NCBI GenBank assembly: GCA_965198025.1
Contig: OZ240237.1
Location: 1,689,093-1,753,092, forward strand
Direction of reading: 5' to 3'
Length of the DNA: 64,000 nucleotides
Source of the DNA: Terriglobia bacterium
GTDB taxonomy: Bacteria > Acidobacteriota > Terriglobia > 2-12-FULL-54-10
A program made the position numbers and the translations under genes. The stretch's first letter is position 1, and every line of letters begins with the position of its first letter. The notes under the pieces were generated by a model. It searched no databases and was not told the DNA's origin. It worked only from the letters and a program-made list of their open reading frames with translations. This document shows, piece by piece, positions 25,734-59,980 of this stretch.

Positions 25734-25819
25734 GGCCACCTCCTTCGATAGGAAATAGATCAAATCTCGACCAAGAGAATTCCAACAGCACGAAGATCGT
25801 GCCGTGCCCAACTGTGAGA

Positions 25820-26809: not shown

Positions 26810-27019
26810 ATGTGTTTCCTTTTGCATTTAGAATGAGGGGTGTATTCCGACCCCCCCCTTGAGTTTTCTAATCGCCCGCCGTGAACCCTGGCTGCCTGCC
26901 AGTATACGGGTCTTTTCCTGATTTTGAAATGGGAAGCTGGGGATGGCAACCCGGATTTCTGCAGGGGCAATATGAGGCAACATTCTACCTGCGGGAGGCT
27001 TCGAGGCGTCGGAGCTATA

Positions 27020-28531
27020 ATGGCGACTATGAAACCGGCGTCATCGCAGGAGGATTTGAAAGACCGGATCGAGTATTTTCTGTTGGGGCTTCGGCGACCT
27101 ATTCTGACTGAGCCCGGACGGGCAGTGCTGGATCTTTCTTCCTGCCGTTATTCGCTTTCCACCCAGTACAACAAGCTGCTCTGGCATGTCTGGAACCATC
27201 AGACCAATCTGGTGCGCCAGATCACGGAAATTCGGAAGGAAACGCCGGGGCGCATGGAGCTTCGATTCCAGAAATTCGGTAAAGGGCCTCCGGGGACCCT
27301 GGTTCTTTCCGAGACTCGTGCCGCTCCGGAACAGATGGCCCGTCGGAGCCAGCGTACCCGCTACGCGCAGACGTTGCGGCACATACTCGGGCAACTGTTT
27401 CCCCAATGGAAAGTAGAAGAGTTGAGCGTAGAACCCGACCATAAGCATTCTATCTCCGGGCGCTACGCGCGAGCGCTGCTGCGGCGTGGCCAGCAGACCT
27501 GGGCCGTGGTCGGGTCCGGAGAACACGAGGATGTATCGGCGGCAGACGCCATCCTGACGCACGGGTTGATCTGGCTCGATTGGCTGCGCCGCAGCCAGCA
27601 GAATCGAGTCATTACCGGTCTCAAGGTATTCGTTCCTGCAGGCCGGGCCGATACGACTCTTCACCGCATCGCGTGGCTCGATTTCGAGGCGGCTCAATGG
27701 GAAGTTTATGAGACCGGTGAGGAAACATGCCGCTGCGACCCGGCTGACGCGGGAAACCTAAAGACCAGCCTGGGTCCAGCCGAGCCGGTGCACCGGCCGT
27801 CCGTTTCTTCCATTTCTTCGGAATGGAATCAGAGAATGGGGGCCGTGTGGCTGGACATGCAGAGGCAATCGGCAGGGGATGGATTCGCTCACTGGACGGT
27901 ACACGGGATCCCGGTAGCACGGGAGACTGCGAGTGGCTTGGTGTTTGGCATCGGCCAGTCCGAGACCCCGTTGACGGAAGAAACCTTTGCCGAATTCGAA
28001 CAACTGGTTCATAAGCTCTTTCACTGGCGCCGCTCAGACTCCCCCGATCGCCATCATCCCTTTTATCGACTGTGGCCGGAACGATGGATGCAAAGCCAGA
28101 TCGTCCAGCAAATTGACAAACTCGGTTACGACCTGCTTCCCGGAGCGGTGTATCAGCAGGTGCCAGCCGTATCGGGCGCCGAGCGTGGGGTGCTGGATTT
28201 GCTGGCGATTGACTCCCGAGGCCGCCTCGCCGTGGTGGAACTGAAAGCTTCCGAAAGCATCCACCTTCCGCTCCAAGCGCTCGATTATTGGATGCGTGTG
28301 CACTGGCATCTGGAGCGGGGCGAATTCGAACGCGGGCGATACTTCCCAGAACGGCAACTGAACCCGTCACCGCCGTTGCTGCTGCTGGTGAGTCCCGCGC
28401 TGCAGATTCATCCGGCTTGCGAGACTGTGCTGCGATATTTCTCGCCAAAGATCGAGGTTGTCCAGATCGGGTTAAATGAAGATTGGCGGGGACAATGGCA
28501 GGTTGTCTATCGCTCCCGCAGCAAACTGTGA
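27020..28531 (+). CDS. hypothetical ~500 aa protein with a C-terminal PD-(D/E)xK (NucS/Hjc-like) nuclease motif
   Basis: C-terminal block GVLDLLAIDSRGRLAVVELKASESIHLPLQALDYW has the catalytic pattern D...D...E-x-K followed by a Q..Y element; an upstream segment looks like a degenerate copy; GGAG RBS before ATG 27020. Confidence 0.5.
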   Translation: MATMKPASSQEDLKDRIEYFLLGLRRPILTEPGRAVLDLSSCRYSLSTQYNKLLWHVWNHQTNLVRQITEIRKETPGRMELRFQKFGKGPPGTLVLSETRAAPEQMARRSQRTRYAQTLRHILGQLFPQWKVEELSVEPDHKHSISGRYARALLRRGQQTWAVVGSGEHEDVSAADAILTHGLIWLDWLRRSQQNRVITGLKVFVPAGRADTTLHRIAWLDFEAAQWEVYETGEETCRCDPADAGNLKTSLGPAEPVHRPSVSSISSEWNQRMGAVWLDMQRQSAGDGFAHWTVHGIPVARETASGLVFGIGQSETPLTEETFAEFEQLVHKLFHWRRSDSPDRHHPFYRLWPERWMQSQIVQQIDKLGYDLLPGAVYQQVPAVSGAERGVLDLLAIDSRGRLAVVELKASESIHLPLQALDYWMRVHWHLERGEFERGRYFPERQLNPSPPLLLLVSPALQIHPACETVLRYFSPKIEVVQIGLNEDWRGQWQVVYRSRSKL

Positions 28532-28550
28532 AAAGTCTTACTGGGGGTGC

Positions 28551-29117
28551 TCAGCCCTGCGGCGGGCTCAAGTCCACGGTGACGCGGAAGACCGGGATGA
28601 CGAGGTAGGGGTCAGTGGGGAGGCGGCTTTCGAGCACCACGGCCGTGCTGGGAGCCGTGGCCTCGACGTTCTTCTCGGCCGTAACGAGCAGGCCGAAAAC
28701 GCGAAGCGGGATCCGCAGGTTCCATTTTGCCGCGTCCCCGGACAAGGGGACAGCACCGAGATTCCTGATCCGCTTTTCCTCGTCGATCGCCCAAAGAACA
28801 TACTGCATTCCTGGCCAGCCCATAGCCTGCGCGGAGGGCAGATTCACAATCTCGATCTCCATCGTCGCGCCCTCGTTCTCATACTTGATTTTGCTCAAGC
28901 CTTTGGAAGTCAGCGTACGTTCTCCCCCGCCCAGAGTCACAGAAACGTCCCGGTCGGGCGGATAAGCAATGACGAGGAGCTCCCATTGATTGTTCGGGAG
29001 CAACCCTGCAGCCAGCACGGCTGAAACCGTCAGCAGCAGCCAGAGACACAGTGATGCCGCCTTCCTGGTCATTTGATTGATCGAGCCGCATACGGGTTTG
29101 GACAGATTCAAATTCAC
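28551..29117 (-). CDS. hypothetical secreted protein
   Basis: 188 aa with N-terminal signal/TM LCLWLLLTVSAVLAAG; same strand as and immediately downstream of the 29136-29927 gene. Confidence 0.5.
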   Translation of the reverse strand: MNLNLSKPVCGSINQMTRKAASLCLWLLLTVSAVLAAGLLPNNQWELLVIAYPPDRDVSVTLGGGERTLTSKGLSKIKYENEGATMEIEIVNLPSAQAMGWPGMQYVLWAIDEEKRIRNLGAVPLSGDAAKWNLRIPLRVFGLLVTAEKNVEATAPSTAVVLESRLPTDPYLVIPVFRVTVDLSPPQG

Positions 29118-36801: not shown

Positions 36802-38262
36802 ATGACACGAAGACAAGTTGGGATGGATTCCAAGGAAATTTTTTCCGCAGCCTTGGCCGGGATCATTGTGCTGAGCGCCGCCGTATTGTGGATGCGCTCC
36901 GTCCCGCTGCGCGAGTTACAAGCCAGCGCGGAGCGGGCAGGCCGGCAGCCGACGGGCACTGCGCAACTGGTCGCCGTGCAGACGATCCCGGGATGGGCGG
37001 AGGGCGAGATGTGCGAGTGGGTTCCGGCGAGCGCGGGATCGAACTTGCTGTCGTTGCTGCCGGAACCGCAGTCACAGGACGTGCCCACACGGAGCGGACC
37101 GGCACCGACACCAACCCCCGAGGAATTCGCAGAAGTCAACGCGCGTTCCCCGTTGCGCATGGTCAAGGACCACTATCCCTCCTACAGTTCGGTGGCGGTC
37201 GATTTGAAGAACAACGAAGTGATCATGACCGACGAGAGCACCTTCTCGATCCTGACCTATGACCGCATGACGAACACGCCGGCGAGCGCTGCGTTCAGCG
37301 AGCCGAAGCGGCGCATCGGCGGGCACCAGACCTGGATCGAGTATCAATGCGGCGTCTACGTGGATCAGGCCTCGGGGGACATCTATGCGGTAAACAACGA
37401 CACCGTGGACCGTCTGGTAGTCTTCTCTCGGGAGGCGCGGGGGGACGTGCCACCCGATCGCATCCTGCATACGCCGCACACGACCTACGGGATTGCGGTG
37501 GACGAGCCGCACCAGGAACTCTTTATGACGGTGCAGGAGGCGGCCGCGGTCAGCGTGTTTCGGAAGTTCGCCGCGGAGCACGAAGAACCGATCCGCCTGC
37601 TGCAGGGAGAGCGAACGCTGCTGGCGGACCCGCACGGGATTGCGGTGGACTCAACACGCGACCTGCTGTTCGTATCCAATTTCGGTTCCGTCTCCAGGAA
37701 AGACCCGACCCAGATCCGAGAAGACGCCACCGGATACTACGAGGGGACGGACAAGGCCAACTGGCCGCTGTCGCGGAACGCCGCCATCCCGGGGAGCGGC
37801 AAGTTCCTGCCTGCTTCGATTACCGTCTACCCGCGCGACGCCGAGGGTGACGTGGCCCCGATGCGCAAGATCGAAGGCTCCCGAACACAGTTGAACTGGC
37901 CGACGGCGCTGGTGGTGGATCCGGAGCGGGGAGACCTGTTCGTGGCCAACGATACCGGAGACTCCATCCTTGTGTTTGACGTCATGGCAAGCGGCAATGT
38001 GGCTCCCAAGCGCGTCATCAAAGGCCCACAGAGCATGATCAAGAGTCCCACGGGCGTCTTCTACGACTGGGAGCACGATGAGCTCTGGGTGGCGAATTTC
38101 GGGAATCACACGGCCACCGTCTATCCTGCCACGGCGTCGGGCGACGTGGCGCCTCTGCGCGTGGTTCGCAGCGCTCCGCGTAACACAGGCACGCCCAATA
38201 TCGGCAATGCCTATGCTCCGGCGTATGACTCGCGGCGTGATCAGATCATGGTGCCCAACTGA
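36802..38262 (+). CDS. membrane-anchored YVTN-like beta-propeller repeat protein, N-terminal part; ends at an in-frame TGA in the middle of a blade (probably one gene with 38263-39069)
   Basis: GGGAGGG RBS; N-terminal TM helix; repeated ~48-aa blades of the form GDVAP.R.I.G..T.L..P.G...D....EL.VAN......VF; the ORF stops at TGA 38260-38262 right after a ...MVPN turn. Confidence 0.7.
   Translation: MTRRQVGMDSKEIFSAALAGIIVLSAAVLWMRSVPLRELQASAERAGRQPTGTAQLVAVQTIPGWAEGEMCEWVPASAGSNLLSLLPEPQSQDVPTRSGPAPTPTPEEFAEVNARSPLRMVKDHYPSYSSVAVDLKNNEVIMTDESTFSILTYDRMTNTPASAAFSEPKRRIGGHQTWIEYQCGVYVDQASGDIYAVNNDTVDRLVVFSREARGDVPPDRILHTPHTTYGIAVDEPHQELFMTVQEAAAVSVFRKFAAEHEEPIRLLQGERTLLADPHGIAVDSTRDLLFVSNFGSVSRKDPTQIREDATGYYEGTDKANWPLSRNAAIPGSGKFLPASITVYPRDAEGDVAPMRKIEGSRTQLNWPTALVVDPERGDLFVANDTGDSILVFDVMASGNVAPKRVIKGPQSMIKSPTGVFYDWEHDELWVANFGNHTATVYPATASGDVAPLRVVRSAPRNTGTPNIGNAYAPAYDSRRDQIMVPN
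38260..38262 (+). other. in-frame UGA inside a beta-propeller blade: candidate selenocysteine codon or programmed readthrough site
   Basis: TGA is followed directly by GTG in the same frame; the identical arrangement (aac tga gtg ... cac ccg cag att gc) is seen in the paralog at 59111-59113. Confidence 0.4.
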
Positions 38263-39069
38263 GTGTCCCACCCGCAGATTGCCATCTTCGCCAGGCTGGC
38301 GGATGGAAATGCAGACCCGGTTCGAGCCATTGCGGGCCAGAAATCACTCCTCGCCCGTTCGACGCACGGCATCGCGTACGACCACATCCGGGACCTGATT
38401 CTGGTGCCGAATTTCTACGCGCAGGCGATTCAGTTTTTCCCGGGAGACGCGAATGGCGAAGTGGCCCCGGAACGGATCATTCAGGGTCCTCTGACCCAGT
38501 TGAACAATCCGGACAAGCTGATGCTCGACGCCGTAAACAACGAAATCCTGATCCCGATGCGGGACCGCCTGCTGGTGTTTGACGGCAGCGCCGAGGGGAA
38601 CGTGGCTCCCAAGCGCATCCTGGGTCCGCACCCGGACTTGGGGGCACAGGTGGTGGCCGCCGACCCAGTGCATGATCTGCTGGTGTTGGCGGGACGCGGG
38701 GGCGGCTACGGCGGGCGGTTCCAGATTTTCGACCGTACCGCGTCGGGCAACGACGAACCCAAGTGGGTGATCGCCGGTCCGAACACCGAACTGCAACGGT
38801 TCATGGGACCGATCGAGGTGCAACCCACACGCGGTTTGATCGTCGCCGGGATTCGGACCAATGCGGAATTGGGCGGCCCGGATAACTTCGTCGGGGTGTG
38901 GGACATATTCGCGCGCGGAGACGCCCGGCCGATTTACCGCATTGGAGGCCCTAACGTGCTCCTCGAACAAGTGCGCGGTATCACCTTGAATCCCAAACAC
39001 AAGGAGCTGATCGTTTCCGACAAGCGCATCAACGGAGTGATGACCTACTACTTCCCGGAGATTTTCTAG
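38263..39069 (+). CDS. beta-propeller repeat protein, C-terminal part; same frame as 36802-38262 and continuing the interrupted blade (VSHPQIAIFA...)
   Basis: Begins at GTG immediately after the TGA with no RBS; five further blades of the same repeat type; ends ...YYFPEIF like its paralog. Confidence 0.7.
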   Translation: MSHPQIAIFARLADGNADPVRAIAGQKSLLARSTHGIAYDHIRDLILVPNFYAQAIQFFPGDANGEVAPERIIQGPLTQLNNPDKLMLDAVNNEILIPMRDRLLVFDGSAEGNVAPKRILGPHPDLGAQVVAADPVHDLLVLAGRGGGYGGRFQIFDRTASGNDEPKWVIAGPNTELQRFMGPIEVQPTRGLIVAGIRTNAELGGPDNFVGVWDIFARGDARPIYRIGGPNVLLEQVRGITLNPKHKELIVSDKRINGVMTYYFPEIF

Positions 39070-39087: not shown

Positions 39088-39134
39088 GCAAAACCCCCTC
39101 CCCACTTTTCGTGGGGAGGGGGTTCTTGTTTGTC
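39088..39134. terminator. bidirectional intrinsic terminator (12-bp stem ccccctccccac / gtggggaggggg) between convergent genes
   Basis: agcaaaa ccccctccccac ttttc gtggggaggggg ttcttgtttgtc lies between the propeller gene end (39069) and the receptor gene end (39152). Confidence 0.65.
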
Positions 39135-39151: not shown

Positions 39152-42100
39152 CTAGAAGGTGAACTTCAGGCCGAACTGGATCTGCCGGGCGGTGGTGGTC
39201 AATTCGTCACCGGGAATGCGCCCGGCATGCGGGAGGTAGCGGGTGATTCCATCGCCGGCCGCATCCGGGTCGAATACATCTGCTTCCGGCAGACCCAGGT
39301 TTGGACGGTTGAGGAGGTTGAAGAATTCAGCCCGGAACGTCAGGTCCTTTTCTTCACCCATCTGGAACCGCTTGGTTAGCGTGAAGTCCAGGCTGATCAG
39401 CCGGGGTCCGATCATCGTGTTTCGGCCGATATTCCCGAAGAAGCCCGGTTGCGGCACAGCCAGTCCCAGCGGATTGGGCAGCGCGAACGCGTTCGGGTCG
39501 AACCACTGGTCCGGGCTTCCAATGATGGGGTTGAGGACATTGCCCGTATAGTTGGGATTGACATCAGGACGCTCCGAGCCCCCGCTATTCCCCTGCCGGG
39601 ACCAATCGAATCCCATGTCGGGGGTGAAGGGCTGTCCGGCCAGCGCCGTGAAGACCCCGCTGACAGTCCAGCCGCCCAGAATCGCATTGGCGGCGCCGCT
39701 CTCAAACTGGAACGGCAGCGGAAGCGTGCCCGTCGACGTGAACACGTGCGTGGAGTCGAAGGCCGCCCGCCCCCAATCTCTGGTCAAATTAAACGGGTCC
39801 TGGGAGGTGCCGGGGTCCCGCGTCCCGTTGTCGCTGCTGTTCAGACCGCCCTGTTGGTTCATGACCTTGGAATAGGTGTAGTTGGCCTGGAAGAGCGCAC
39901 CGGCAACGGTCTGGCGCGAAAACCGAACTTGCAGACCGTTGTAGTTGGCGTTCGCATCGTCGGCTCTCTGCCGGACGCGGTCCCAGTTGGGGTTGCGGCG
40001 GATGCCCGTGGTCGAGGTCGAGGGGCACCGGCGGGCAAGACTCGATACCCCATCCCACCCACCATACGGCGCAGGCAGGCAGACCTCGGAGCCGCCGCTG
40101 CGCGAAGGACGGTAAACGACGCCATTCGACAGGAGTTCGGGTATGGGGGAATTGAGCTGGAAGTAGCGTTCGAGGTGGCGCTGCTGGGAGCCGACGTACG
40201 CGATCTCGACCACGCCCCGCGCCCCTAATTGCTGCTGCAACGCCAGGGTGTAGCTGTACTTGGTCGGCTGGTCCATGTGCGGCAACAGCGGTTCAGTCCG
40301 CAGCCGCACGGCGTCGCCCGTCACAACCCGTGAAGTCAGCGGGAAGGTGTTCGCCAGCACATCCTCGTTCCGAATCCGGGCCCGCGAGTAGAAGGGAGGA
40401 TACTTCGACAGGCTCTGCGTGTAGTAGGAGGGCAGAATCAGGTCATGGTAAACGCCGACGCCGCCGCGCAACACCCGCGAAGCGCTGTCGTCCAACTGCC
40501 ACGCAAACCCGAACCGCGGCTGGACGTTCTTCCTGCCCATCTCCGTGAACGCGTACAGATCCGGTCCGATGTTATCCGGATATCCAGGATATCCAGAGGT
40601 TCTTTCCACCCTCCAATCCGGATGGAGACCTAATTGATTCTCGTTATGGTTGATATCGAGCAGATTGGAGATCCGGTTGTTGGCTTCGGTGGGGTCGGTG
40701 ATCCACTCCCAGCGCAGCCCCAAGTTCAGCGTCAGCCGCGGGTTCACCTGCCAGTCATCCTGGAAGTAGACCCCGTACATCGTGTTGCGGAGGCCCTTGT
40801 AGCCGGTCTGCCCGGGCAAGGTCCCGGACCACTCGTGAGGTTGAGCCAAGAGCAGGTTCTCGGGGGTCTCGAAGGCGTAAGCCGCTCGAGTATCCGTCTG
40901 CACGTTCATGTTGTTCTGGACGCGCCGGATCGAACCGCCCCACTTGAACGTGTGCGTACCCCGGACGTAGGTCATGTCGTCGCCCCACTCCCAGAGGTTG
41001 TATTTCCACCATCGGGGCCGCGTGCCGTTGCTCCCGCCTTCATCGTAAAACAGGATGCCGTTGATTTCTCCGACGATGATCTCGCCGATTACCTGCCCCG
41101 GGACCCAGGAAAGCCCCTCCAAGCCAGAATTCGTGAGAATTGCATCCTGGACCTGCGCCGTCCGATTGAGAGCGACTCGGGCCGAATTGACAATGGTCGG
41201 CGAGACCACCGAGTTGGCTTGCAACGTAATGTACTGCCGCCGCGCCTCGTTTGTATTCAGAAAGGCTTCTTGTTCATCGGGGTTATTCCGACTGTCGTCA
41301 TCGAAGGAGTAGCGGCCAAAGATGTTGGTCGAGTTCGTGAGCTGATGGTCCACCCGGCCCATGAAGTAATCCTGCCGGCTGGCTTGATTGGGCGCCGAAA
41401 AGTAGAGGCCCACCGAACTGTCCAGCCCCCCCGGGTCATTGGGGTCAAACGGCAAGATCTGGTGCGGGTCCGGATAGAGTGCAAAGAAGGGCACCACACG
41501 GGGGTCGGGCGTAACCATGTAGGTGCCGCTGCCGTCGGCCAGGGGCAGGATTCCCTGCTTGACCGCCGGGGTCGGCACGCGGACCTCTGTGCTTTGGCTC
41601 AACGCCTCGCGCAACCCTTCATAGCCGGCGAAGAAGAACGTCCGGTCCCGGATGATCGGCCCGCCGATGGTGCCGCCGAACTGGTTCCGGCGGAACGGCG
41701 GAACGTCCCCCGTGCCGTCCCCGTCGAAGTCCAGGTCATCCCGGAACTTCCGCGCATCGAACGCGCTGTTGCGCAGGAACTCGAACGCCGTTCCATGCAC
41801 CTGGTTGGTGCCGGTCCGGGTGACCGCCGAGATCACCGCCCCGGATGCCCGCCCGTATTCGGCGCTGAAGGTCGAGGCCACGATCTTGAACTCCTTGATC
41901 GTATCCACGCCCATGTTGGTTCCCGCCGCGCCGCCCGGCGTGTTGTTCGACGCATCGTTGATGTCCGTCCCGTCCAGCAGAAAGCTGTTCGACGTCGCCA
42001 GACTGCCCGACGCGCTGAATTTGTTTCCCCCCGGGCTGCCGTTAAAGCTCTGGCCCGACGTCGTGTACTTGACAATCCCGGGTTGCAGCAGCGCCAGCTG

Positions 42101-42559
42101 GTCGTAGCTCCGGCCGTTGAGCGGCAACTCCCGGATCGTCCGGTCGTCCACCAGGCCCGTGATGTTGGCGTTCGTCAACTCGATCAGCGGAGCCTCGCCA
42201 GTCACTTCCACCGTCTGCGTGACCGCCCCCACCTGCAGCGTGAAATCAACGACTGCGGCCCGGCCCACCGTCAGGACGATTCCTGAGCGGACCGCCGTTT
42301 GGAACCCATCGAGTTGGGCTCGCACTTCATAGTTGCCTAAGCTGAGCGCCGGAGCCGAATACCGCCCCGCTGCATTGGCTGTTACCGTACGGGTGATCCC
42401 CGTATCCTGATTGGTGAGTACCACATTGGCTCCCGGAAGCACCGCGCCCGATTCATCGCGCACCGTCCCCGAGATGGTTGCCGTGTTCACCTGCGCCCAC
42501 ACCAGTGAGCTGCAAAAGGCGAACGCCAACGCCAGCATTGCAATTCTTCGCGTCGCCAT
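39152..42559 (-). CDS. TonB-dependent receptor-like outer membrane protein with CarboxypepD_reg domain (1135 aa from ATG 42559)
   Basis: GGAGG RBS before MATRRIAMLALAFAFCSSLVWAQ signal peptide; CarboxypepD_reg segment SGTVRDESGAVLPGANVVLTNQDTGI; plug motif LPLNGRSYDQLALLQPG; C-terminus QIQFGLKFTF. Confidence 0.85.
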   Translation of the reverse strand: MATRRIAMLALAFAFCSSLVWAQVNTATISGTVRDESGAVLPGANVVLTNQDTGITRTVTANAAGRYSAPALSLGNYEVRAQLDGFQTAVRSGIVLTVGRAAVVDFTLQVGAVTQTVEVTGEAPLIELTNANITGLVDDRTIRELPLNGRSYDQLALLQPGIVKYTTSGQSFNGSPGGNKFSASGSLATSNSFLLDGTDINDASNNTPGGAAGTNMGVDTIKEFKIVASTFSAEYGRASGAVISAVTRTGTNQVHGTAFEFLRNSAFDARKFRDDLDFDGDGTGDVPPFRRNQFGGTIGGPIIRDRTFFFAGYEGLREALSQSTEVRVPTPAVKQGILPLADGSGTYMVTPDPRVVPFFALYPDPHQILPFDPNDPGGLDSSVGLYFSAPNQASRQDYFMGRVDHQLTNSTNIFGRYSFDDDSRNNPDEQEAFLNTNEARRQYITLQANSVVSPTIVNSARVALNRTAQVQDAILTNSGLEGLSWVPGQVIGEIIVGEINGILFYDEGGSNGTRPRWWKYNLWEWGDDMTYVRGTHTFKWGGSIRRVQNNMNVQTDTRAAYAFETPENLLLAQPHEWSGTLPGQTGYKGLRNTMYGVYFQDDWQVNPRLTLNLGLRWEWITDPTEANNRISNLLDINHNENQLGLHPDWRVERTSGYPGYPDNIGPDLYAFTEMGRKNVQPRFGFAWQLDDSASRVLRGGVGVYHDLILPSYYTQSLSKYPPFYSRARIRNEDVLANTFPLTSRVVTGDAVRLRTEPLLPHMDQPTKYSYTLALQQQLGARGVVEIAYVGSQQRHLERYFQLNSPIPELLSNGVVYRPSRSGGSEVCLPAPYGGWDGVSSLARRCPSTSTTGIRRNPNWDRVRQRADDANANYNGLQVRFSRQTVAGALFQANYTYSKVMNQQGGLNSSDNGTRDPGTSQDPFNLTRDWGRAAFDSTHVFTSTGTLPLPFQFESGAANAILGGWTVSGVFTALAGQPFTPDMGFDWSRQGNSGGSERPDVNPNYTGNVLNPIIGSPDQWFDPNAFALPNPLGLAVPQPGFFGNIGRNTMIGPRLISLDFTLTKRFQMGEEKDLTFRAEFFNLLNRPNLGLPEADVFDPDAAGDGITRYLPHAGRIPGDELTTTARQIQFGLKFTF

Positions 42560-43089
42560 AGTCACCCTCCTCCTGTTGGATTTGGTTAGCGGCGAAACCT
42601 GCTGCGCCTGGTTATTGTTCGGACGGAAGCCTGCTTCTGCACGAACTGTCACTATCCCAACCCGACCCGTAGAACTCAGTCTCTTCCCTGTCCAGTACGG
42701 CGGCTCTTCGGTTCCCGTTACCCAATTCCCCAAATTTGTAAAGACCTGACACCGCCTCTCGATGTTCATCATACGCCACTGCAGCCGAGACCACAATCAG
42801 CTTTGCAATGTATATTTGCCAATTAGCTATACGGGTTTTGGCAGTCCAAACCCTGAGTCTGAACCGGCAATTCGTCCAAATTTCGGTGTTCGAACCGCTA
42901 TGACGTGATGAGTCTTGCCGACATGGCAGAATGAGGATGTGCGGGCGAAGTGGTAGCCAAAACGTCTGCCTCTCGCGGTACTCCAGGTGGGGATTGACGA
43001 AGCCAGGACACGCGAAGTAGGATTGCCGTAACCGGGGAATCGGCCGGTGCTGTTACGTGTTCTGCTAATCGTCCGGCGAGTCAGGCAGG

Positions 43090-45832: not shown

Positions 45833-47527
45833 CTATGGATTCCCGGGCACTGGTGGGGCGCTTCGCTTCTCTGTACGGGTCACAGGCGTGGCGCCCAATC
45901 GGAGAAGCAATTCCGCCGTGCTCTTGTGCTCATTGGCTGAGCCGCGATAGCGCTTGTCGCGCCGGTCCACGAAGCCGGAGGGGTCTCCCTGCGCGATACT
46001 GAGCGGCGTCTGGCCATAACGATCCTTCGGGTCGAGGCGGGCACCTCGGCTTACCAGGAACTCGATGATGGCATTGGCCCCCCGATAGGCGGCGCCGTGC
46101 AGCGCGGTCTGGCCGTCTTTGTCAGCTGCGTTGACGTCGACTCCGAGTTCAACTGCCAGCTGAACGGCTTCCAGAGCATTGGCTTCTTCGGCTGGCGTGC
46201 GGTCTTCGAGCTGGCCCAGGCCGGCGGCCACGATAAGCGGCGTCACTCCATCCTGGGTCGCCAGCAGGGGATTCGCGCCAGCCCTCACGAGGGTTTGCAT
46301 GGCCGCGACATCGCCCGACGCAGCCGCCAGCAGGAACGGAGTTGCGCCAGGCTGCCGCAGATGCGGCATATTGTTGATATCGGCGCGGGCGAAGGGCGGG
46401 TAGTTGAAGGGTGGAAAACCTTTACCGATGCGGGCGTTTGGATCGGCTCCCCGCGCCAGAAGGGCCTGCAGTAAGTCGGGCATGTTGGGGAAGATCCATT
46501 CCTCGTCAGTTGGAATTCGCCCTCGGGCCATGCCGATTGCCGCACTGCCTTCACGCACCGCGTAGTGCAGCGGGGTCAGACCCCATCCATCCGTCAGGTT
46601 TGGATTCGCGCCCTGTTCAAGCAGGAAGAGCGCCAGCGTCTCGTATCCGTTGGCTGCTGCCACCAGCAGCGCATTGCCGTAGTCTGGGGTGGCGGAATCG
46701 AGATCCGCCCCCGCCTCCAGCAGCATTCTGGCTGTTTCCAGATCGCCGTGCATGCTGGCGAACATCAGCGGCGTAAACCCGCCCTTGGAAGAGACTGGGT
46801 CCCGATGAAAGTCCTCCGCATCTCGCCGGCCCATTCTGCCTGGGACATGCTCGTGAACTCCGAAAGTAGCATACAGCAGTGGCTGGAAGCCTTCGGTCAG
46901 ATGCGACGCGGCATCGACGTCTGCCCCGCGAGCGATGAGCATCCGCACGATTTCCGGACGCTTCTGCGCTGCAGCCCACATCAGCGCCGTCTGCCCGCGG
47001 CGGGTCGCTCTGTTAACATCCGCACCGTGTTCCAGCAGCGCTCGCACCGCATCCGCATTGCCCGTCCGTGCGCAGACCATGAGCGGTGTCGCCCCGCTCC
47101 ACCGAGCAGCGTTCGGATCGGCCCCCCCCTCCAGCAGCTTCTCTGCCATGGTGTGGCTCCGATTGGTGCAGGCCAGGGAAAGAGGTGTGACACCATAATC
47201 GTTCGCCAGATTTGGATCGGCGCCCGAGCGGATCAGAAGGTCCGCCATTCTCAGGTCGTCCCAGCGGGCCGCCCACGCCAGCGCCGTCGTTCCGTCCAGC
47301 TGAGCTGCATTCACATCCACATGCTGTTCCAACAGAGCCAGCGCAGTCGCCCAGTCGCGACTCTTGACTGCCTCCGCCAGCCGCAAATCGCCGGGGGGAG
47401 ACGAAAAGCTCATCGCCGAAAAGATGATCGAAAACGCGGCCGACAGAAGGAAATTCTTTGCCCCGCCGTTGGAACGCATCGTGCTGTGGTCCATCCAGAT
47501 CCCTTTCTGCACCTGCTTTTCAGGCAC
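45833..47527 (-). CDS. ankyrin repeat protein, secreted (signal peptide)
   Basis: At least 10 ankyrin repeats (G.TPL..A...G......LL..GAD.N); N-terminal signal sequence; starts 9 nt after the DUF1552 gene stop. Confidence 0.85.
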   Translation of the reverse strand: MPEKQVQKGIWMDHSTMRSNGGAKNFLLSAAFSIIFSAMSFSSPPGDLRLAEAVKSRDWATALALLEQHVDVNAAQLDGTTALAWAARWDDLRMADLLIRSGADPNLANDYGVTPLSLACTNRSHTMAEKLLEGGADPNAARWSGATPLMVCARTGNADAVRALLEHGADVNRATRRGQTALMWAAAQKRPEIVRMLIARGADVDAASHLTEGFQPLLYATFGVHEHVPGRMGRRDAEDFHRDPVSSKGGFTPLMFASMHGDLETARMLLEAGADLDSATPDYGNALLVAAANGYETLALFLLEQGANPNLTDGWGLTPLHYAVREGSAAIGMARGRIPTDEEWIFPNMPDLLQALLARGADPNARIGKGFPPFNYPPFARADINNMPHLRQPGATPFLLAAASGDVAAMQTLVRAGANPLLATQDGVTPLIVAAGLGQLEDRTPAEEANALEAVQLAVELGVDVNAADKDGQTALHGAAYRGANAIIEFLVSRGARLDPKDRYGQTPLSIAQGDPSGFVDRRDKRYRGSANEHKSTAELLLRLGATPVTRTEKRSAPPVPGNP

Positions 47528-47535
47528 TGGTTTGT

Positions 47536-48873
47536 CTAGACGACGGAGAGCAGTTCCAGTTTTCCGGTACTGTCGCCGAAGTGATCCACCGGAACCCCGA
47601 CCCGGTCGAGCAGCGTCAAAAACAAATTCGTCACCGGCGGGCTGTTCGGATACATGAGGTGCCGTCCACCCTTGAGGCCTTCGGCACCGCCCGCCACCAG
47701 CAGCGGCAGGTTGGTTGGGTTATGCCGGCTGCCATCGCTCAAGCTGCTCCCGTACAGGATGATGGAACGATCCAGCAGCGAGCCGTCGCCATCCGGGGTG
47801 GTGTGCAGCTTTTCCAGAAAATACGCAAACAGCTTCGTATGATAGAGGTCGATCTGGGCAACTTTCGCAACCATAGCCGGATTGTTGTCGTGGTGCGACA
47901 AGGCATGGTGCCCTTCCTCCATGCCGATCTCCCGATACGCTCGCTCGCTCTTTTCCCGAGCCATCAGGAACGTACTCACGCGAGTCAGATCGGCCTGGAA
48001 GGCCAACACCTGCAAATCGGCCATGAGCTGGGCGTGCTCGTCGTAGGTGGCCGGGACGCCCGCGGGCCGGTCCATCACCAGAATATCCCGGGACGAGTTC
48101 TCCTCCGCATTCCGGATGCGGTGCTCCACATCGCGGATGCCATCGAGGTACTGTGAGAGCTTTCCTCGGTCGCCGGGTCCGAGCCCGCCGAGCAACCGTC
48201 TGAGTTCCTCGGTCACCGAATCCAGGATGCTGCGGTCCTGCTGAATGCGTCGGCGACGCTCGGCAGGGTCCGTGCTCTCATCTGCCCCAAAGAGCCGTTC
48301 GAACACTTTGCGCGGATCATTTTCGACCGGCAGCGGCGTCGTGGCGTTGCGCCAGGACATCGTATTGAGGTAGGCATCCGTATCGGCGGCATCAGCCCCA
48401 GCGCCCTGTTCGCCCAAATCCAAAGTCACTTCGAGCGAGGCCAGTTGCGTATCCTTGCCCAGCTCTTTGGCGGCAATCTGGTCCAGCGAAATGCCGGCCT
48501 GGGCCGGCGGCTTCGGGTAAACACCCGTCAGAAAGGCGCCACTCGCGCTGGCGTGCGGGCCAGCGGGGCGCTCCCCTTTGGGGGGAACAGCAGCATGGTT
48601 GGCGAGTCCGCTCACCAAGAGAATCTGGTCTCGAAAAGGCGCGACGGGCTTCAGCGTCGAAGGGATTTCGAAATTGGCCCCTTCCCCTGTAGGCGTCCAG
48701 TGTTCCATAATGATGCCGTTCGGGACATAGACAACGGAAAGCCGGGATGGCCGGGCCGTCGTAGCCTGCGGGCCGGCGAATGCAGGCGTCATCGAATCCA
48801 GCAGCGGCAGCGCCAATGTCGTTCCAATTCCGCGCAGAAACGTGCGACGGGGAATTGCCTTCTTGAAAATCAT
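47536..48873 (-). CDS. DUF1552 family protein (Tat signal), partner of the DUF1592 protein
   Basis: Twin-arginine signal RRTFLRGIGTTLALPLL; family typical of Planctomycetes/Acidobacteria, always paired with DUF1592 proteins. Confidence 0.75.
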   Translation of the reverse strand: MIFKKAIPRRTFLRGIGTTLALPLLDSMTPAFAGPQATTARPSRLSVVYVPNGIIMEHWTPTGEGANFEIPSTLKPVAPFRDQILLVSGLANHAAVPPKGERPAGPHASASGAFLTGVYPKPPAQAGISLDQIAAKELGKDTQLASLEVTLDLGEQGAGADAADTDAYLNTMSWRNATTPLPVENDPRKVFERLFGADESTDPAERRRRIQQDRSILDSVTEELRRLLGGLGPGDRGKLSQYLDGIRDVEHRIRNAEENSSRDILVMDRPAGVPATYDEHAQLMADLQVLAFQADLTRVSTFLMAREKSERAYREIGMEEGHHALSHHDNNPAMVAKVAQIDLYHTKLFAYFLEKLHTTPDGDGSLLDRSIILYGSSLSDGSRHNPTNLPLLVAGGAEGLKGGRHLMYPNSPPVTNLFLTLLDRVGVPVDHFGDSTGKLELLSVV

Positions 48874-48889
48874 CTTGGGACCTCCTCCT

Positions 48890-51316
48890 CTATGGCGTCC
48901 TCCTCATCTGGAATGGCGTGCTTTCAACTATGCCTTCAATCAGGGACGACCACCGGTAGCCCTCCGGGGCGGCATCTCGCACGATCTTTCGGACAACCGG
49001 CTGGTCGTAATGTTCAAGTCCTCGGCCCAGGGCATACAGCAGAAGTTTTTCGGTAACTGTAATGACGAACTGCTCCCGTCGGCTCAAGAGGATCTCACGA
49101 AGTTCTGCCGGACCCCGGAACTCGGTGCCGTCAGGAAGTTGGCCCGACGAATCGATAGGCGTCCCCCCCACGGAAGTCCGCCATTTGCCCAGCGCATCGA
49201 AGTTTTCGAGCGCAAAACCGAGCGGGTCCATGTAGCTATGACAAGCCGCGCAGACGGGATTCGCGCGGTGCTGCTCCAACCGCTGGCGCATGGTCAGCAC
49301 CTGCCCTTCCTCGCCGTCCTCCTCCCCGAGCGACGGCACGTTGGGCGGCGGCGGGGGAGGCGGCGCCCCCATGATATTGTCGAGCAGCCACTTGCCCCGG
49401 ATCGTCGGCGCCGTCCGATTGGAGTACGACGTCACCGTAAGCACGCTTCCCTGACCGAGCAACCCTCTGCGCTCCTCATTCTGTAAATCCACGCGGCGAA
49501 AATGACTCCCGAAAACATCCGGAATCCCGTAGTGCTGGGCCAGACGCTCGTTCAGGAACGTATAGTCGGCGTCCAGCAGGTCCAACAGGCTGCGGTCCTC
49601 CCGCAGCGTGCTCTCAAAGAACAGTTCTGACTCTTCCCGCAGAGCCTGCCGCAGATTGTCATCGAAATCGGGAAAGACTTTCGGGTCCGGAGAAATATCT
49701 TGCAGGTTTCGCAGGGAGAGCCACTGCCCGGCGAAATTTTCTACCAGCATCCGGGAGCGCACGTCGTCCAGCATTCGCTTCACTTGTTGCTTCAGCACAG
49801 TGGGATCTTTGAGTTTGCCATGTTCGGCCAGCGTAAGAAGTTCGTCGTCCGGGATGCTGCTCCACAGGAAAAACGCCAGACGCGATGCTAGCTCGAGATC
49901 GCTGATGTGATAGGGCCTGTCCGGCACCGCGTCTGGTGGGTCGCGTTCGATCCGGAACAGGAACTCCGGTGAAACCAATATTCGTTGTAGTGCGCCTCGA
50001 ATGCCGACTTCGAATCCCCCGTCCCTACGTCCCGCATTGTAGAAACCAAGCAGAACCTGAAGGTCCGCTTCGGTCACCGGCCGGCGATACGCCCGGCGCG
50101 CCAGCTTGGACAGAATCTCTCGGGCGCAGGCTTCCTCGTCCCCGGCACCATTAGGAGTGCACACCAGAATCTTGGCGCGGCTAGCCGTTTCCCCCACTCC
50201 TGTCGCGTCGTAGGGTCCACGGATCGAGACCTGGTCGACGGCCGGTGGGCCGCCCTTGTAGCCGCTGGCTGTGAGTTCATCACGCAACTGGCGCGGCATG
50301 ACTTTCCCTTCGGGTTCGAAGATTTCATGCAGGAAAGCCACCTGCACCAGGCGTGTCCCTGCCTTCGACGGGAAGCGCACTTCCAAGTCCTCATCAACGG
50401 TGAGTTCGTATCGCTCCTGTTCGGGATCGCCCCGGTAGTCGGGAAGAATAAAGGAATACAAGGGGCCCGACACGCCCCTGTGCTCTCCCCCCACCGGGAA
50501 CAGCTTGATTCGCGCGCCGTCTAGACGAACATCGAGTTGATGCGGCTCTGCCAGCCCGATGATGTAATTATCCTTGTTTCGCTGCAGCCGGATCGTCAGA
50601 ATATATTCGCCGTCGAGCGGAAAATGATGCCGGACCGCGATTCCCCCTCGCGATCCGAGCGGGAGGTCTTCGCTCATGCGGCCGGTCTGCACGAGATCGC
50701 GCGACACATCGTAAGTCTCCGTGAACGGACTCACGTTCGGATCTCCCAGCGCTAGGCGGGTAATTCTGCGCGCCGCGAACATATACCGCTCCACCAACAG
50801 CGGCGATACCGAAAGCATTTCGGCGATGTTGTCGAAGCCGTGGCCCGCATCGTCGGCGGGCAGCAGTGTTACCCCGTCGATTTCCACGGCCAGCAAATCA
50901 CGGATGGCGTTGGCGTATTCCACCCGGTTCAGCCGGTGGACGGCGGGCCGGCCCGGATTCGGGTCAGCGGCTGCGGCGCGGTCGAGCTCCACTTCAATAT
51001 AGGTGGCAAGCGAGTCGTAGGACGCTGCATCAGGCCGCGGCATCCCCGCCGGCGGCATCGATGCCGTCCGCAGTTTCCTCACTACTTTTTCCCATATGGG
51101 TGCTGCCGCTCTGACGTCCTCGATGTCCACTCGGTCGAGCATCAGCCCCGCCGTTTGGAGCCTTTCGTTGTGGCAGGTAACGCAGTAGCGATTGAGAAGC
51201 GCACGCTGCGGCGAGGCGGCGGATTGAGCTGTGCTCGAAGCCAATTGCCCCGTGGCCCCCAGGGAGGCAGAGGCCAAGAAAAGGATTCCGCAGCCCGTCA
51301 GTATCGTCCGTAACAT
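48890..51316 (-). CDS. DUF1592/DUF1585/DUF1587/DUF1588/DUF1595 multi-domain protein with a cytochrome c-like CxxCH motif
   Basis: Signal peptide; heme motif CVTCHN near the N-terminus; 808 aa architecture typical of the DUF1592 family. Confidence 0.75.
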   Translation of the reverse strand: MLRTILTGCGILFLASASLGATGQLASSTAQSAASPQRALLNRYCVTCHNERLQTAGLMLDRVDIEDVRAAAPIWEKVVRKLRTASMPPAGMPRPDAASYDSLATYIEVELDRAAAADPNPGRPAVHRLNRVEYANAIRDLLAVEIDGVTLLPADDAGHGFDNIAEMLSVSPLLVERYMFAARRITRLALGDPNVSPFTETYDVSRDLVQTGRMSEDLPLGSRGGIAVRHHFPLDGEYILTIRLQRNKDNYIIGLAEPHQLDVRLDGARIKLFPVGGEHRGVSGPLYSFILPDYRGDPEQERYELTVDEDLEVRFPSKAGTRLVQVAFLHEIFEPEGKVMPRQLRDELTASGYKGGPPAVDQVSIRGPYDATGVGETASRAKILVCTPNGAGDEEACAREILSKLARRAYRRPVTEADLQVLLGFYNAGRRDGGFEVGIRGALQRILVSPEFLFRIERDPPDAVPDRPYHISDLELASRLAFFLWSSIPDDELLTLAEHGKLKDPTVLKQQVKRMLDDVRSRMLVENFAGQWLSLRNLQDISPDPKVFPDFDDNLRQALREESELFFESTLREDRSLLDLLDADYTFLNERLAQHYGIPDVFGSHFRRVDLQNEERRGLLGQGSVLTVTSYSNRTAPTIRGKWLLDNIMGAPPPPPPPNVPSLGEEDGEEGQVLTMRQRLEQHRANPVCAACHSYMDPLGFALENFDALGKWRTSVGGTPIDSSGQLPDGTEFRGPAELREILLSRREQFVITVTEKLLLYALGRGLEHYDQPVVRKIVRDAAPEGYRWSSLIEGIVESTPFQMRRTP

Positions 51317-57192: not shown

Positions 57193-57691
57193 TGTTCTGT
57201 CCTGGAAGTACGGTGATTCAGTTTCGGAGCGCAACGGCGCTGGATTGGGGGGAGAGACGACGAGCCAATGCTCATTCATTGCGAGGAGGAGCGACGCCCA
57301 AGACGGCGCCGTTCCGCCCGAACTCGTAGAGCCGATGGACGTTGCTCACGCTACGGAAACGCGGCCCCGGAACCCGTTGCGATTTGGGAGGCGTGGACGC
57401 TGTCGGTTCCTCAACAGCCACGTCCATCGGAATGAATGAGCGTATTTCCGGGACAGGACACTAGCTCTCATCGTTTTCCCTCGGCGCAGGCAGGCAAAGC
57501 GCTCCGCAGCAGATCCATCGCGTTCAGAATTTGGTTTGGTGAGCTAAAGCAGCCTGTGCCAGCGCCTGAATCCGAGACGCGGCCCGAACCGATATTCAAG
57601 ATTGATGTCCTTCAGGAAGCGGTTGCTCTTACGAGCAATTCTAAGAGCGTATTGGGGAGACATGAGAATAGGAGATAGGAGGAGCGAGGTG

Positions 57692-59113
57692 ATTCGACAT
57701 TCCCGATCGAAGCGTAGAAAAATCCGTGAGATTGTAATTCTTGGTTCCCTGACCGCAGTTGCCGGCTGGCTTGTCTGGAGCGGAAGCAACGGAATCGATC
57801 TGGAGCGGGAAAGGACGGCTCATCCTCGCCTGGTTTCGATTCAGCCGCTGCCGGAGCTTGGTTCGGAAATGGCTGGCGCGATGTGCGAGTACATGCCCGC
57901 CAGCGCGACTCCCTCGCTGCTTCTGGCCCTGCAGGAATCGCAGGCGGCGCGGGAGCCATACCCAGGTGCTGCTGAGCAGGAAGCCGCCTCGAAGCGGCTC
58001 CCGATCCGGACCATGCGAGACCCCTACTCCTCTTTCAGCGCGGTGGCAGTGGACCCCACCAACGACGAAGTGGTCATGACCGACGAGAATCTGTTCAGCA
58101 TTCTCAGCTACAATCGCACAGACAACACGCCGCCTGCCGCTCGCATGACCGAGCCCAAGCGCATCATCCGCGGTGAGTCCACCAACATCGAGTTTCAATG
58201 CTCGCTCTATGTGGACCCGGTCAATGGCGACGTCTACGCCGCCAACAATGATACCCTTGGCAAGCTGGTCGTTTTCTCGCGGCAGGCCCGCGGCGACGTG
58301 GCCCCCGATCGTTCTATCAACACTCCCCACACCACTTTTGGCATTGCCGCGGATGAAAAGACCCAGGAGTTGATGCTGACGATCCAGGATGATGCTGCCG
58401 TGGTCACCTACGCCAAGACAGCCCAGGACGACGATCCGCCGATCCGGCTGCTGCAAGGCGAGAAGACCCTGCTCGCCGATCCGCATGGCATTACGATTGA
58501 CAAGAACAAAGACCTGCTCTACGTGTCGAACTGGGGCACGGTCAATATTCACCGTGCACCGCCGGATGGGGCCAAGGCCGGAACCCTCGGACGGGGCAAC
58601 GGGCATCCCAATTGGCCCATCGGCCGGAATTACACCATCCCGGGCTCCGGTGTGGCGAACCCGCCCTCCATCACGGTATATCCGCGAGATTCGCGCGGAG
58701 ATGTCGCTCCGCTGCGCGCCATCCAGGGTCCCAGGACGCAGTTGAACTGGCCCACGTCTCTCTCGGTAAACCCTGCCAACGGTGAGCTTTTTGTTGCTAA
58801 TGACACCGGGCACTCCGTCCTGGTCTTCGGCCCGGATGCCGACGGCGACGTCGCGCCAATCCGAGTCCTCAAGGGCCCCAGAACCTTGATCCAGAACCCC
58901 ACAAGTGTATTCTTCGACGAGAAAAACAACGAGCTATGGGTTGCCAATTTCGGCAACCACACGGCCACGGTCTATCGGCCGGACTCCTCTGGCGACACGC
59001 CGCCGCTTCGCGTGATCCGCAGTGCTCCGTTCGAAGCTCCTACTCCTATGCTCGGCAATCCGCACGTGGTCACCTACGACAGCCGCCGTGAAGAGATCAT
59101 GGTCGCCAACTGA
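57692..59113 (+). CDS. membrane-anchored YVTN-like beta-propeller repeat protein, paralog of 36802-38262, N-terminal part; ends at an in-frame TGA (track ORF starts at 57602; AGGAGG precedes GTG 57692)
   Basis: TM helix IVILGSLTAVAGWLVW; the same blade repeats and the conserved MCE(Y/W)xPASA segment; stops at TGA 59111-59113 after ...IMVAN. Confidence 0.7.
   Translation: MRHSRSKRRKIREIVILGSLTAVAGWLVWSGSNGIDLERERTAHPRLVSIQPLPELGSEMAGAMCEYMPASATPSLLLALQESQAAREPYPGAAEQEAASKRLPIRTMRDPYSSFSAVAVDPTNDEVVMTDENLFSILSYNRTDNTPPAARMTEPKRIIRGESTNIEFQCSLYVDPVNGDVYAANNDTLGKLVVFSRQARGDVAPDRSINTPHTTFGIAADEKTQELMLTIQDDAAVVTYAKTAQDDDPPIRLLQGEKTLLADPHGITIDKNKDLLYVSNWGTVNIHRAPPDGAKAGTLGRGNGHPNWPIGRNYTIPGSGVANPPSITVYPRDSRGDVAPLRAIQGPRTQLNWPTSLSVNPANGELFVANDTGHSVLVFGPDADGDVAPIRVLKGPRTLIQNPTSVFFDEKNNELWVANFGNHTATVYRPDSSGDTPPLRVIRSAPFEAPTPMLGNPHVVTYDSRREEIMVAN
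59111..59113 (+). other. in-frame UGA inside a propeller blade (second occurrence): candidate selenocysteine / readthrough codon
   Basis: aac tga gtg gct cac ccg cag att gcg; the downstream ORF continues in frame with no RBS and encodes the rest of the blade (VAHPQIAAF...). Confidence 0.4.
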
Positions 59114-59980
59114 GTGGCTCACCCGCAGATTGCGGCCTTCCCCAGGTTGGCGGAAGAAAACGCGAGAGCCACTCGGGCCATTGCCGGACAGCACACGCTC
59201 ATAACGCGCACCATTCACGACATGGCCTACGATCCGGTCCGTGATGAAATCGTCGTTCCCCAGTTCTACATGCAGGGCATACTCACCTTCCGGGGCGCTG
59301 CCAACGGGGATGAAGCGCCCATCCGCGTTATCAGCGGTCCTCGCACAGAGATTGCAAACCCGACTCGGATTGCCCTCGATCCCATCAATAACGAAATCTA
59401 TATCCCGATGAATCACCGCCTGCTGGTCTTCGATCGCTTTGCCGAGGGTAACGTAGCTCCCATTCGAACCATAGAAGGGCCGGATACGGAAATGTCCGCG
59501 GGCGTTGTCCAGGTGGACCCGGTGAACAATTTGGTCGTTGTTGGTGGATACAGCGTGGCCGGGGGTCGCGGAGATGCGGCGCAGATCGCCAGAGGACAGG
59601 TCCTCAGCGGAGACCGCAGCGGCCGGGGCGGCCAAATCCTCATCTTCGACCGGACTGCTGCCGGCAACGCCAGACCGTTGCGCATCATCCGCGGCCCCAA
59701 CTCGAAGCTCTCCCGCGTCGGGCTGATGGCCCTCTATCCACCCCGGCAGTTGATCGTCGCCAGCGTCCCGGCGGGCCAGACAACATCACCCGAAAATTTT
59801 GTCGGCGTATGGAGCGAGCTGGACGATGGCGATGTCCCGCCCCGCTGGTTGCTCGGCGGTCCGAACTCTGTTCTTCGTCAAGCCCGTGGCATCACGCTCG
59901 ACCCTGCGAACAAGAACGTGATCGTTTCGGACAAGTACGTCAATGCCGTGATGACATTTCACTTTCCGGAGATATTTTAG
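59114..59980 (+). CDS. beta-propeller repeat protein, C-terminal part; same frame as the upstream ORF; paralog of 38263-39069
   Basis: Homologous along its length to 38263-39069, including the C-terminus ...TFHFPEIF. Confidence 0.7.
   Translation: MAHPQIAAFPRLAEENARATRAIAGQHTLITRTIHDMAYDPVRDEIVVPQFYMQGILTFRGAANGDEAPIRVISGPRTEIANPTRIALDPINNEIYIPMNHRLLVFDRFAEGNVAPIRTIEGPDTEMSAGVVQVDPVNNLVVVGGYSVAGGRGDAAQIARGQVLSGDRSGRGGQILIFDRTAAGNARPLRIIRGPNSKLSRVGLMALYPPRQLIVASVPAGQTTSPENFVGVWSELDDGDVPPRWLLGGPNSVLRQARGITLDPANKNVIVSDKYVNAVMTFHFPEIF

Follow-up and report, generated by a model that had tools for sequence, protein, structure and literature searches.

Bacterial selenoprotein genes of the SelB type, as exemplified by Escherichia coli fdhF, combine an in-frame UGA with a stem-loop in the downstream coding region, the selenocysteine insertion sequence (SECIS), whose small apical loop begins with G-G/U. 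The loop lies 16–37 nt from the UGA, the synonymous sites of the hairpin are frozen, each protein carries one selenocysteine (Sec), and homologues with Cys at the same position occur. In Acidobacteria, three selenoprotein families with four selenoproteins were on record in 2006, and three selenoprotein genes are counted in Occallatibacter. The features of SelB-type genes recur in a locus of a Terriglobia bacterium (Acidobacteriota), located in a stretch of 64,000 nucleotides with a G+C content of 59% (assembly GCA_965198025.1, contig OZ240237.1, positions 1,689,093 to 1,753,092 of the forward strand), hereafter the window. Here, two abutting open reading frames (ORFs) at 36802–38262 and 38263–39069 very probably constitute one gene, referred to as copy 1, in which a UGA would be read as Sec within a membrane-anchored tandem beta-propeller.

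The encoded protein differs from catalogued selenoproteins in its fold, an NHL beta-propeller as opposed to a thioredoxin-like protein or metallo-cofactor enzyme, and in its Sec motif N-U-V-x-H-P, which lacks both CxxU and UxxC. In contrast to the prototype genes of the SelB/SECIS type, its gene is present as several paralogues per genome. It also departs from the NHL propellers TRIM2/TRIM71/Brat, Mycobacterium tuberculosis PknD, PAL, NHLRC2, and SOQ1, to which it is 14–22% identical, by its two tandem propellers on a membrane anchor, an invariant Cys/Sec in the turn between strands B and C of a blade, and an invariant Cys in the tether; to our knowledge, none of these proteins is a selenoprotein. 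With YncE and the lactonases it shares a generic beta-propeller with YVTN/NHL-like blades. However, YncE and the PF10282 lactonases are single seven-bladed propellers, and the respective profiles score below their cut-offs: Lactonase (PF10282) 20.1 versus 21.7 and SGL (PF08450) 20.5 versus 26.3 on the N-terminal half, and YncE (NF052280), the only match in NCBIfam release 20, 10.2 bits versus 400 (E=0.24). Like several predicted envelope selenoproteins, namely, a FCYXU-type TonB-dependent receptor, an MtrB/PioB-like outer-membrane protein, DsbA/DsbG-like proteins, and an ExtKL cytochrome (PMC13188914), the product is predicted to be extracytoplasmic, but their folds and motifs are unrelated and no sequence similarity to them was detected.

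Translation of copy 1 yields 486 amino acids, a single TGA at 38260–38262, and, with the frame unchanged, a further 268 amino acids up to a TAG at 39067–39069, in agreement with an earlier note on this DNA that had drawn attention to the lone in-frame TGA followed directly by GTG. That note had also found no ribosome-binding site before the GTG, and indeed none of GGAG, GAGG, or AGGA occurs within the 22 nt 5′ of GTG 38263, whereas the ATG at 36802 has GGGAGGG 8 nt upstream. A strong bidirectional terminator follows the gene, and nothing comparable lies between the two ORFs; because the only strong terminator is 3′ of the second ORF, both are expected on one transcript. Taken together with the evidence below, it is very likely that the UGA of copy 1 is read as Sec, an estimate that refers to the recoding only, and that 36802–39069, and likewise 57602–59980, each represent a single selenoprotein gene.

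The second of these genes, copy 2, was recovered by a tblastn search of the window with the fused product (about 57602–59980; 52.8% identity over 735 residues). Its start is ambiguous between TTG 57602, ATG 57605, and ATG 57662, of which only the last has a GGGGAG just upstream. The sole internal in-frame stop is again a TGA, at 59111–59113, which aligns with the codon of copy 1 (...IMVPN*VSHPQIA in copy 1, ...IMVAN*VAHPQIA in copy 2). Since copy 2 and other loci have TGA at the homologous codon, the in-frame TGA is not a random lesion. Paralogues are also clustered elsewhere: a 1.67-Mb contig (locus L088) contains three Sec-type genes within 12 kb, at 2041–4290 on the plus strand, 4769–6853 on the minus strand, and 10001–12271 on the plus strand, each split at its TGA by the gene caller.

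Homologues place Cys and the putative Sec at the same position. A search of a 5.8-billion-protein collection with the fused sequence, in which U was replaced by C, produced 1983 matches, the best 120 of which fall into 48 proteins of about 425–510 amino acids and 72 proteins of 620–796. All but one of the short proteins (47/48) stop at the ...V-P-N/D strand that corresponds to the TGA of the window, the remaining one being cut earlier. Conversely, the long homologues that cover the UGA column in a MAFFT alignment are single ORFs with Cys there (71/71), in the motif (N/S)-C-V-x-(H/Q/N)-P, which is the pattern that the earlier note had proposed to look for. Searched exhaustively with an HMMER profile, 1.84 billion representatives gave 14,189 proteins at E<=1e-3, many of these clusters being generic NHL-repeat matches, and 2,676 at E<=1e-30. 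Among the best 150 profile matches, 21 distinct 50%-identity clusters end right before the site and 17 have an internal Cys (C-[VI]-x-x-P).

In a neighbor-joining (NJ) tree of 118 N-terminal halves from the top 120 matches, the 47 Sec-type sequences, including both window copies, form one clade with P0010 as the sole nested Cys form. A single origin of the Sec forms is nonetheless not established, as the HMMER search found Sec-type members within sub-branches that had seemed Cys-only in the first search. Tree and search together indicate that lineages have switched between Sec and Cys more than once.

The identity of the stop codon is equally uniform among metagenomic relatives. A metagenome scan confirmed 244 related stretches, 80 loci of which were kept in addition to one genome locus from a Solibacteraceae metagenome-assembled genome; the homologous site was located in 75 loci, one of which (L031) has two sites. 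At all 76 sites the codon is TGA, neither TAA nor TAG occurs, and the frame stays open past it; with both copies from the window, the count becomes 78/78. Elsewhere in the window TGA is a normal stop and is not reassigned. It terminates 18 of 43 other long ORFs, TAG and TAA also being used, and an outer-membrane protein ends in ...RLSF-TGA with the canonical C-terminal Phe. Gene callers divide the propeller gene at the UGA in all public sources, and the NCBI/JGI records of the family are truncated there under the names "hypothetical," "YncE," or "lactonase family."

Beyond the codon itself, the RNA that follows carries a further part of the signature. In copy 1, a 10-bp hairpin with a UU bulge occupies the positions 22–46 nt 3′ of the UGA, with a folding energy of −12.7 kcal/mol and its GGC loop (38294–38296) 31 nt after the UGA. 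This hairpin and its counterpart in copy 2 (−9.2 kcal/mol) both pass the bacterial SECIS (bSECIS) criteria, taken from the consensus model that PMC13188914 summarises after Zhang & Gladyshev. Across 51 distinct 72-nt segments aligned without gaps from the UGA onward, 50 conform to that model, both window copies among them, with a mean of −13.0 kcal/mol; stems measure 8–10 bp and loops read GGC, GGU, or GGA. The RNAalifold consensus is an 8-bp helix that pairs columns 26–33 with 39–46 beneath an A-GG-N-U cap. The SECIS-type element that the earlier note had suggested searching for is thus present after the UGA and conserved with covariation. Pair 27–45 covaries (AU 26, GC 6, CG 4, UA 1, GU 1), pair 31–41 contains one G-C to C-G switch, and in an L088 paralogue the otherwise invariant pair 32–40 changes from C-G to A-U by way of Ala-to-Asp and Ala-to-Ser codon changes. 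Helix cells are paired in 95.6% of cases, compared to 34–63% when the 3′ partner is slid by 1–3 columns, and none of 500 shuffles matches the observed pairing, covariation score, or double-change cells (12 versus 2.6).

The codons under the hairpin are frozen at synonymous sites. In a set of 61 different genes, GCC is used at codon +10 in 56/56, AGG at codon +11 in 57/58, and GCG at codon +13 in 60/60, although AGG makes up 7.1% of Arg codons across 30 window ORFs and the Arg positions −8, +21, and +32, where the residue is just as invariant, switch freely among codons (synonymous entropy of 1.6–1.9 bits). This pattern clearly points to selection on the RNA of the hairpin. As a control, six Cys-type sites were compared, four of which use CGN for the loop Arg; the A-GG-N-U loop is kept in none of those four. 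From codon +15 on the situation is reversed: a series of residues (R, G, Q, R, H, Y, D) never varies, whereas the synonymous codons that encode them do so freely. Selection after the UGA therefore acts on the protein, in frame, and both halves of the gene are under purifying selection. None of the outcomes that the earlier note had listed as refuting was encountered; in particular, a real stop followed by an unrelated ORF is not what is found, since the downstream ORF and the C-terminal half of the Cys forms are homologous.

The architecture of the protein was examined in an AlphaFold2 model, which is that of the Cys-type homologue P0010 (49% identity, 97% coverage, 45-sequence alignment) and not of the window protein. 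The model has a predicted local distance difference test score (pLDDT) of 87.1 and a predicted template modeling score of 0.82; most of the propeller body exceeds 90, and confidence is low for residues 1–110. Secondary structure assignment by DSSP yields an N-terminal helix (24–49) and then 12 four-stranded blades, that is, two six-bladed propellers, each with the six four-stranded blades of an NHL propeller and superposable on NHL domains of solved structure. The N-terminal half of the window protein matches the Pfam family NHL (PF01436) at 34.5 bits against a cut-off of 20, and the C-terminal half alone has no Pfam match. A Foldseek comparison of the model to the PDB retrieved, at a TM of about 0.3, generic tandem propellers only, such as LRP6, and the sole matches from a profile search of the PDB were weak ones to NHL. 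The modeled Cys/Sec follows directly after strand B of blade 7 (E477–482 in P0010) and precedes strand C (E488–493), which bears out the repeat structure and the position within a blade that had been read from the sequence earlier. Going by general propeller topology, the second propeller would carry this residue on its "top" face.

Outside of the propellers, a basic N-terminus, strongest in copy 2, precedes the predicted hydrophobic helix, which suggests an N-in anchor and an extracytoplasmic location of the propellers. The conserved N-terminal Cys segment pointed out in the earlier note holds up as the motif G-E-M-C-E-W-x-P-A-S-A: all 47 Sec-type proteins and 65 of the 71 Cys-type ones carry C71, with gaps in the rest, and it is the lone invariant Cys in a variable tether. 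Its conservation makes a role as resolving cysteine plausible. Besides the Cys/Sec itself, H278, H436, H522, and W429 are among the residues that are the same in all Sec and Cys forms. Others co-vary with the use of Sec: C183 and H226 (copy 1 numbering) are found in 100% of Sec-type versus 30% of Cys-type proteins, which usually have Ser and Tyr there, and H425 in 77% versus 6%.

These observations can be assembled into a working mechanism. The UGA at 38260 would not be read as a stop, and translation would run on to the TAG at 39067–39069. The hairpin 22–46 nt downstream, with its A-GG-N-U loop, would act as a bacterial SECIS that recruits SelB.GTP.Sec-tRNASec, leading to the insertion of Sec. 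The product would be a 755-residue protein with its N-terminal helix in the inner membrane, a flexible tether bearing the invariant C71, and two six-bladed NHL-type beta-propellers, probably outside the cytoplasm. Sec487, located where strands B and C meet in the second propeller's first blade and within the invariant motif N-U/C-V-x-H/Q-P, would then be a functional residue, either catalytic or a ligand. The role we prefer is that of a redox-active periplasmic selenol whose cycle would involve a selenenylsulfide with C71, although such Sec487–C71 chemistry is put forward tentatively, as possible rather than probable. Alternatively, Sec may serve as a metal ligand, as hinted by HMA-like and SCO1/PCuAC neighbours.

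A number of points weigh against Sec decoding and the functional picture built upon it. Searches for selA, selB, selD, and tRNA-Sec found none of them in the window, nor in about 50 related loci with their flanks, and a search with Rfam at the gathering threshold and ARAGORN returned no tRNA-Sec and no known RNA family in the window and 47 loci. Sec machinery and selenium incorporation are accordingly predictions for this genome, made from sequence; for the machinery, the Sec trait documented in the literature for the phylum is indirect support. The hairpin alone is not diagnostic of Sec, because two of the six Cys-type control sites, both from L083 (7374, TGC; 2125, TGT), retain the AGG hairpin; we read these as "fossil" SECIS elements left by a recent Sec-to-Cys conversion, or else as a sign that the hairpin is older than Sec use there. 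The C71 region of the P0010 model has a pLDDT below 50–60. Functional clues from gene context are weak, and a substrate is not assignable from it since no neighbour is universal. Whereas the recoding signature is present in the sequences themselves, SelB dependence, topology, chemistry, function, and the role of C71 are what we infer from them.

Other readings of the UGA have to be considered in this light. A suppressor tRNA could decode it as Cys, Ser, or Trp with the hairpin stimulating read-through, candidates being an acidobacterial tRNASec-like "allo-tRNA," a selC*-type tRNACys(UCA) together with a SelB-like factor, or a near-cognate tRNATrp. Allo-tRNAs, possible nonsense suppressors, have been reported specifically in Acidobacteria, and selC* tRNACys(UCA)/SelB* may read UGA as Cys in delta-proteobacteria, but selC* genes were not found in Acidobacteria in the same study (PMC5389517). 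The lack of visible Sec machinery in the window would fit suppression, as would the clearly functional Cys at this position in homologues. For Cys, however, TGC would suffice, and the maintenance of TGA plus a costly frozen hairpin in at least 50 diverged genes would be hard to explain unless the residue inserted were other than Cys. Moreover, the hairpin has exactly the features of the SelB type, including the spacing and a loop that opens with G-G/U. Genuine Sec use is also in keeping with the U-x-x-C gene that adjoins the propeller gene in related loci (see below), and suppression is left improbable. Plain programmed readthrough, which the earlier note had kept as its second option, is made much less likely by the Cys homologues and the SelB-type loop; its first option, a double propeller of about 755 residues in which UGA is decoded as Sec, is the one favored by the Cys homologues, the SECIS hairpin, and the in-frame conservation.

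The annotation in all public sources instead implies two genes of 486 and 268 amino acids, which could be coupled by termination-reinitiation at TGA-GTG and whose products would form a split propeller. A GTG does stand straight after the TGA in 56/61 sequences, but in the other five the codon is GTA or GTC, unable to initiate, and no Shine-Dalgarno sequence precedes the GTG. TGA, and no other stop, takes the place of a Cys codon that is otherwise invariant, with no gap; strands B and C of one blade would end up in different polypeptides, the terminator comes only after the second ORF, and the frozen hairpin would be left without a role. Two coupled genes are rejected on these grounds as highly improbable. 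A pseudogene, a sequencing or assembly error, or a TGA reassigned as a sense codon would draw on the bare in-frame stop and nothing more. Pseudogene and error are refuted by the recurrence of this TGA, as the only lesion, in two window paralogues and at the 76 sites found in independent metagenomes, and by purifying selection on both halves; reassignment is refuted by the regular use of TGA as a stop in the window, and the chance of any of the three is negligible. Selenocysteine thus stands as the preferred reading of the UGA, and the features that pertain to it are compiled in the table.

Table. Coordinates of the propeller genes, their recoding elements, and adjoining features (positions in the window)
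Feature	Coordinates	Strand	Basis
Copy 1, very probable selenoprotein gene, 755 codons (486 aa + Sec487 + 268 aa)	36802..39069	+	Translation
Predicted N-terminal transmembrane/signal-anchor helix of copy 1, residues 13-31, IFSAALAGIIVLSAAVLWM	36838..36894	+	Sequence; equivalent helix in P0010 model
Codon for Cys71 (TGC) in tether motif G-E-M-C-E-W-x-P-A-S-A; candidate resolving/ligand partner of Sec487	37012..37014	+	Conservation
UGA codon of copy 1 (residue 487), motif V-P-N-U-V-S-H-P	38260..38262	+	Cys alignment, TGA conservation, blade-7 B-C turn
Putative SECIS hairpin of copy 1, CCAUC-uu-CGCCA-GGC-UGGCG-GAUGG, 10 bp, UU bulge	38282..38306	+	Folding, covariation, frozen synonymous sites
Strong bidirectional intrinsic terminator between convergent propeller and outer-membrane-protein genes	39090..39126	.	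14-16 bp stem and T-run on both strands
TonB-dependent-type outer-membrane protein (CarboxypepD_reg + OMP_b-brl_4), convergent with copy 1	39152..42796	-	Pfam, E=2e-177
Copy 2, very probable paralogous selenoprotein gene	57602..59980	+	tblastn, translation
UGA (putative Sec) codon of copy 2, motif V-A-N-U-V-A-H-P	59111..59113	+	Translation, homologous-site comparison
Putative SECIS hairpin of copy 2, CUUCCCCA-GGU-UGG-c-GGAAG, 8 bp, bulged C, loop GGU 59145-59147	59137..59156	+	Folding, bSECIS criteria

The family is large and uncatalogued, and its fold is unprecedented among selenoproteins; the mechanism, UGA plus SECIS, is textbook. In line with the suspicion voiced in the earlier note that this might be a new selenoprotein family, no selenoprotein model in Pfam or NCBIfam matches, the 2026 catalogue of 119 prokaryotic families contains no propeller, NHL, YncE, or lactonase entry (PMC13188914), and the deep-Sep and BSepDB papers do not mention a beta-propeller selenoprotein. 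A full-text literature search, with incomplete coverage of journals, likewise found no description of the family. Sec-type lineages, diverged and numbering in the dozens, are encountered at two or three paralogues per genome in Acidobacteria, dominant soil bacteria that have so far been credited with about three selenoprotein genes per genome. If confirmed, the family would enlarge the selenoproteome of Acidobacteria and, with it, the demand for selenium among soil microbes, and would correct a systematic annotation error: hundreds of entries end or begin at the UGA under the name "YncE" or "lactonase." It would also provide a natural Sec/Cys series, complete with interconversions and "fossil" SECIS elements, in which the retention of Sec can be studied. 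The N-U/C-V-x-H-P motif, the tether Cys, and the U-x-x-C of an HMA-like neighbour offer handles toward the enzymatic function. It is conceivable, though on the whole unlikely, that these proteins form a family of extracytoplasmic NHL-propeller selenoenzymes, perhaps the main selenoproteins of soil Acidobacteria, with a new Sec chemistry (a metal ligand, possibly for Cu, or a nucleophile acting on TonB-imported substrates) that involves the tethered Cys and sometimes an HMA partner.

The genomic surroundings of the propeller genes show recurrent themes. In the window, a UbiD decarboxylase lies 2.3 kb and an HpaB hydroxylase about 4.7 kb from copy 1, and a tannase/feruloyl-esterase-like hydrolase is located 3′ of copy 2. 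Across loci, an outer-membrane protein recurs in 15, often directly adjacent, UbiD in 10, and an aldo-keto reductase with a twin-arginine translocation signal in 11; further recurrent neighbours are TctA/B, NMT1, and, in 15 loci, an HMA-like protein that is small and secreted. The Cys-type gene of L086 is situated directly 3′ of genes for cytochrome c, a PCuAC-like protein, and SCO1/SenC.

The HMA-like gene merits separate description. It encodes a secreted product of about 165 amino acids and is positioned divergently upstream, at about 700 bp, of a Sec-type propeller gene. Its metal-binding motif G-I-T-U-P-S-C contains an in-frame TGA in 10/10 loci, all outside the window (L019, L020, L026, L028, L029, L043, L047, L055, L059, and L063; in L020 on the minus strand, TGA 1840–1842), and hairpins follow the UGA, while the HMA-like protein of L075 has C-G-V-C where the others have U-x-x-C. 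The gene is a candidate for a second selenoprotein, of the classical U-x-x-C kind, and a possible functional partner of the propeller; it therefore lends independent support to Sec decoding in these Acidobacteria.

Other same-frame TGA junctions in the window, at 28553, 30547, and 9331 (minus strand), were considered as further selenoproteins and proved to be ordinary stops. The last of these regions contains tandem genes for TonB-dependent-type outer-membrane proteins at 6290–9307 and 9329–12499, both on the minus strand and in the same frame, with TGA and 21 nt between them. Read-through is dismissed here, as the first gene ends in ...RLSF and the next has its own signal peptide; the CarboxypepD_reg domain is absent from the second gene of the pair. 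Two adjacent single-propeller genes of the SMP-30/gluconolactonase (SGL) type at 24753–26827 (minus strand) have no in-frame stop and are distinct from the selenoprotein family.

Two further regions of the window stand apart from the propeller genes. At 45833–51316 on the minus strand, a 564-residue protein consisting almost entirely of ankyrin repeats adjoins a DUF1552 (HXXSHH) gene of the Planctomycete type and a gene with DUF1585/1587/1588/1592/1595 cytochrome domains, a trio that is unusual on an acidobacterial contig. At 26924–28531 on the plus strand, an ORF of 535 amino acids without a Pfam match overlaps a long open frame on the minus strand (27624–29117); either strand may be the coding one, and the minus-strand frame is rich in Arg, Pro, and Ser, as is typical of antisense frames in GC-rich DNA.

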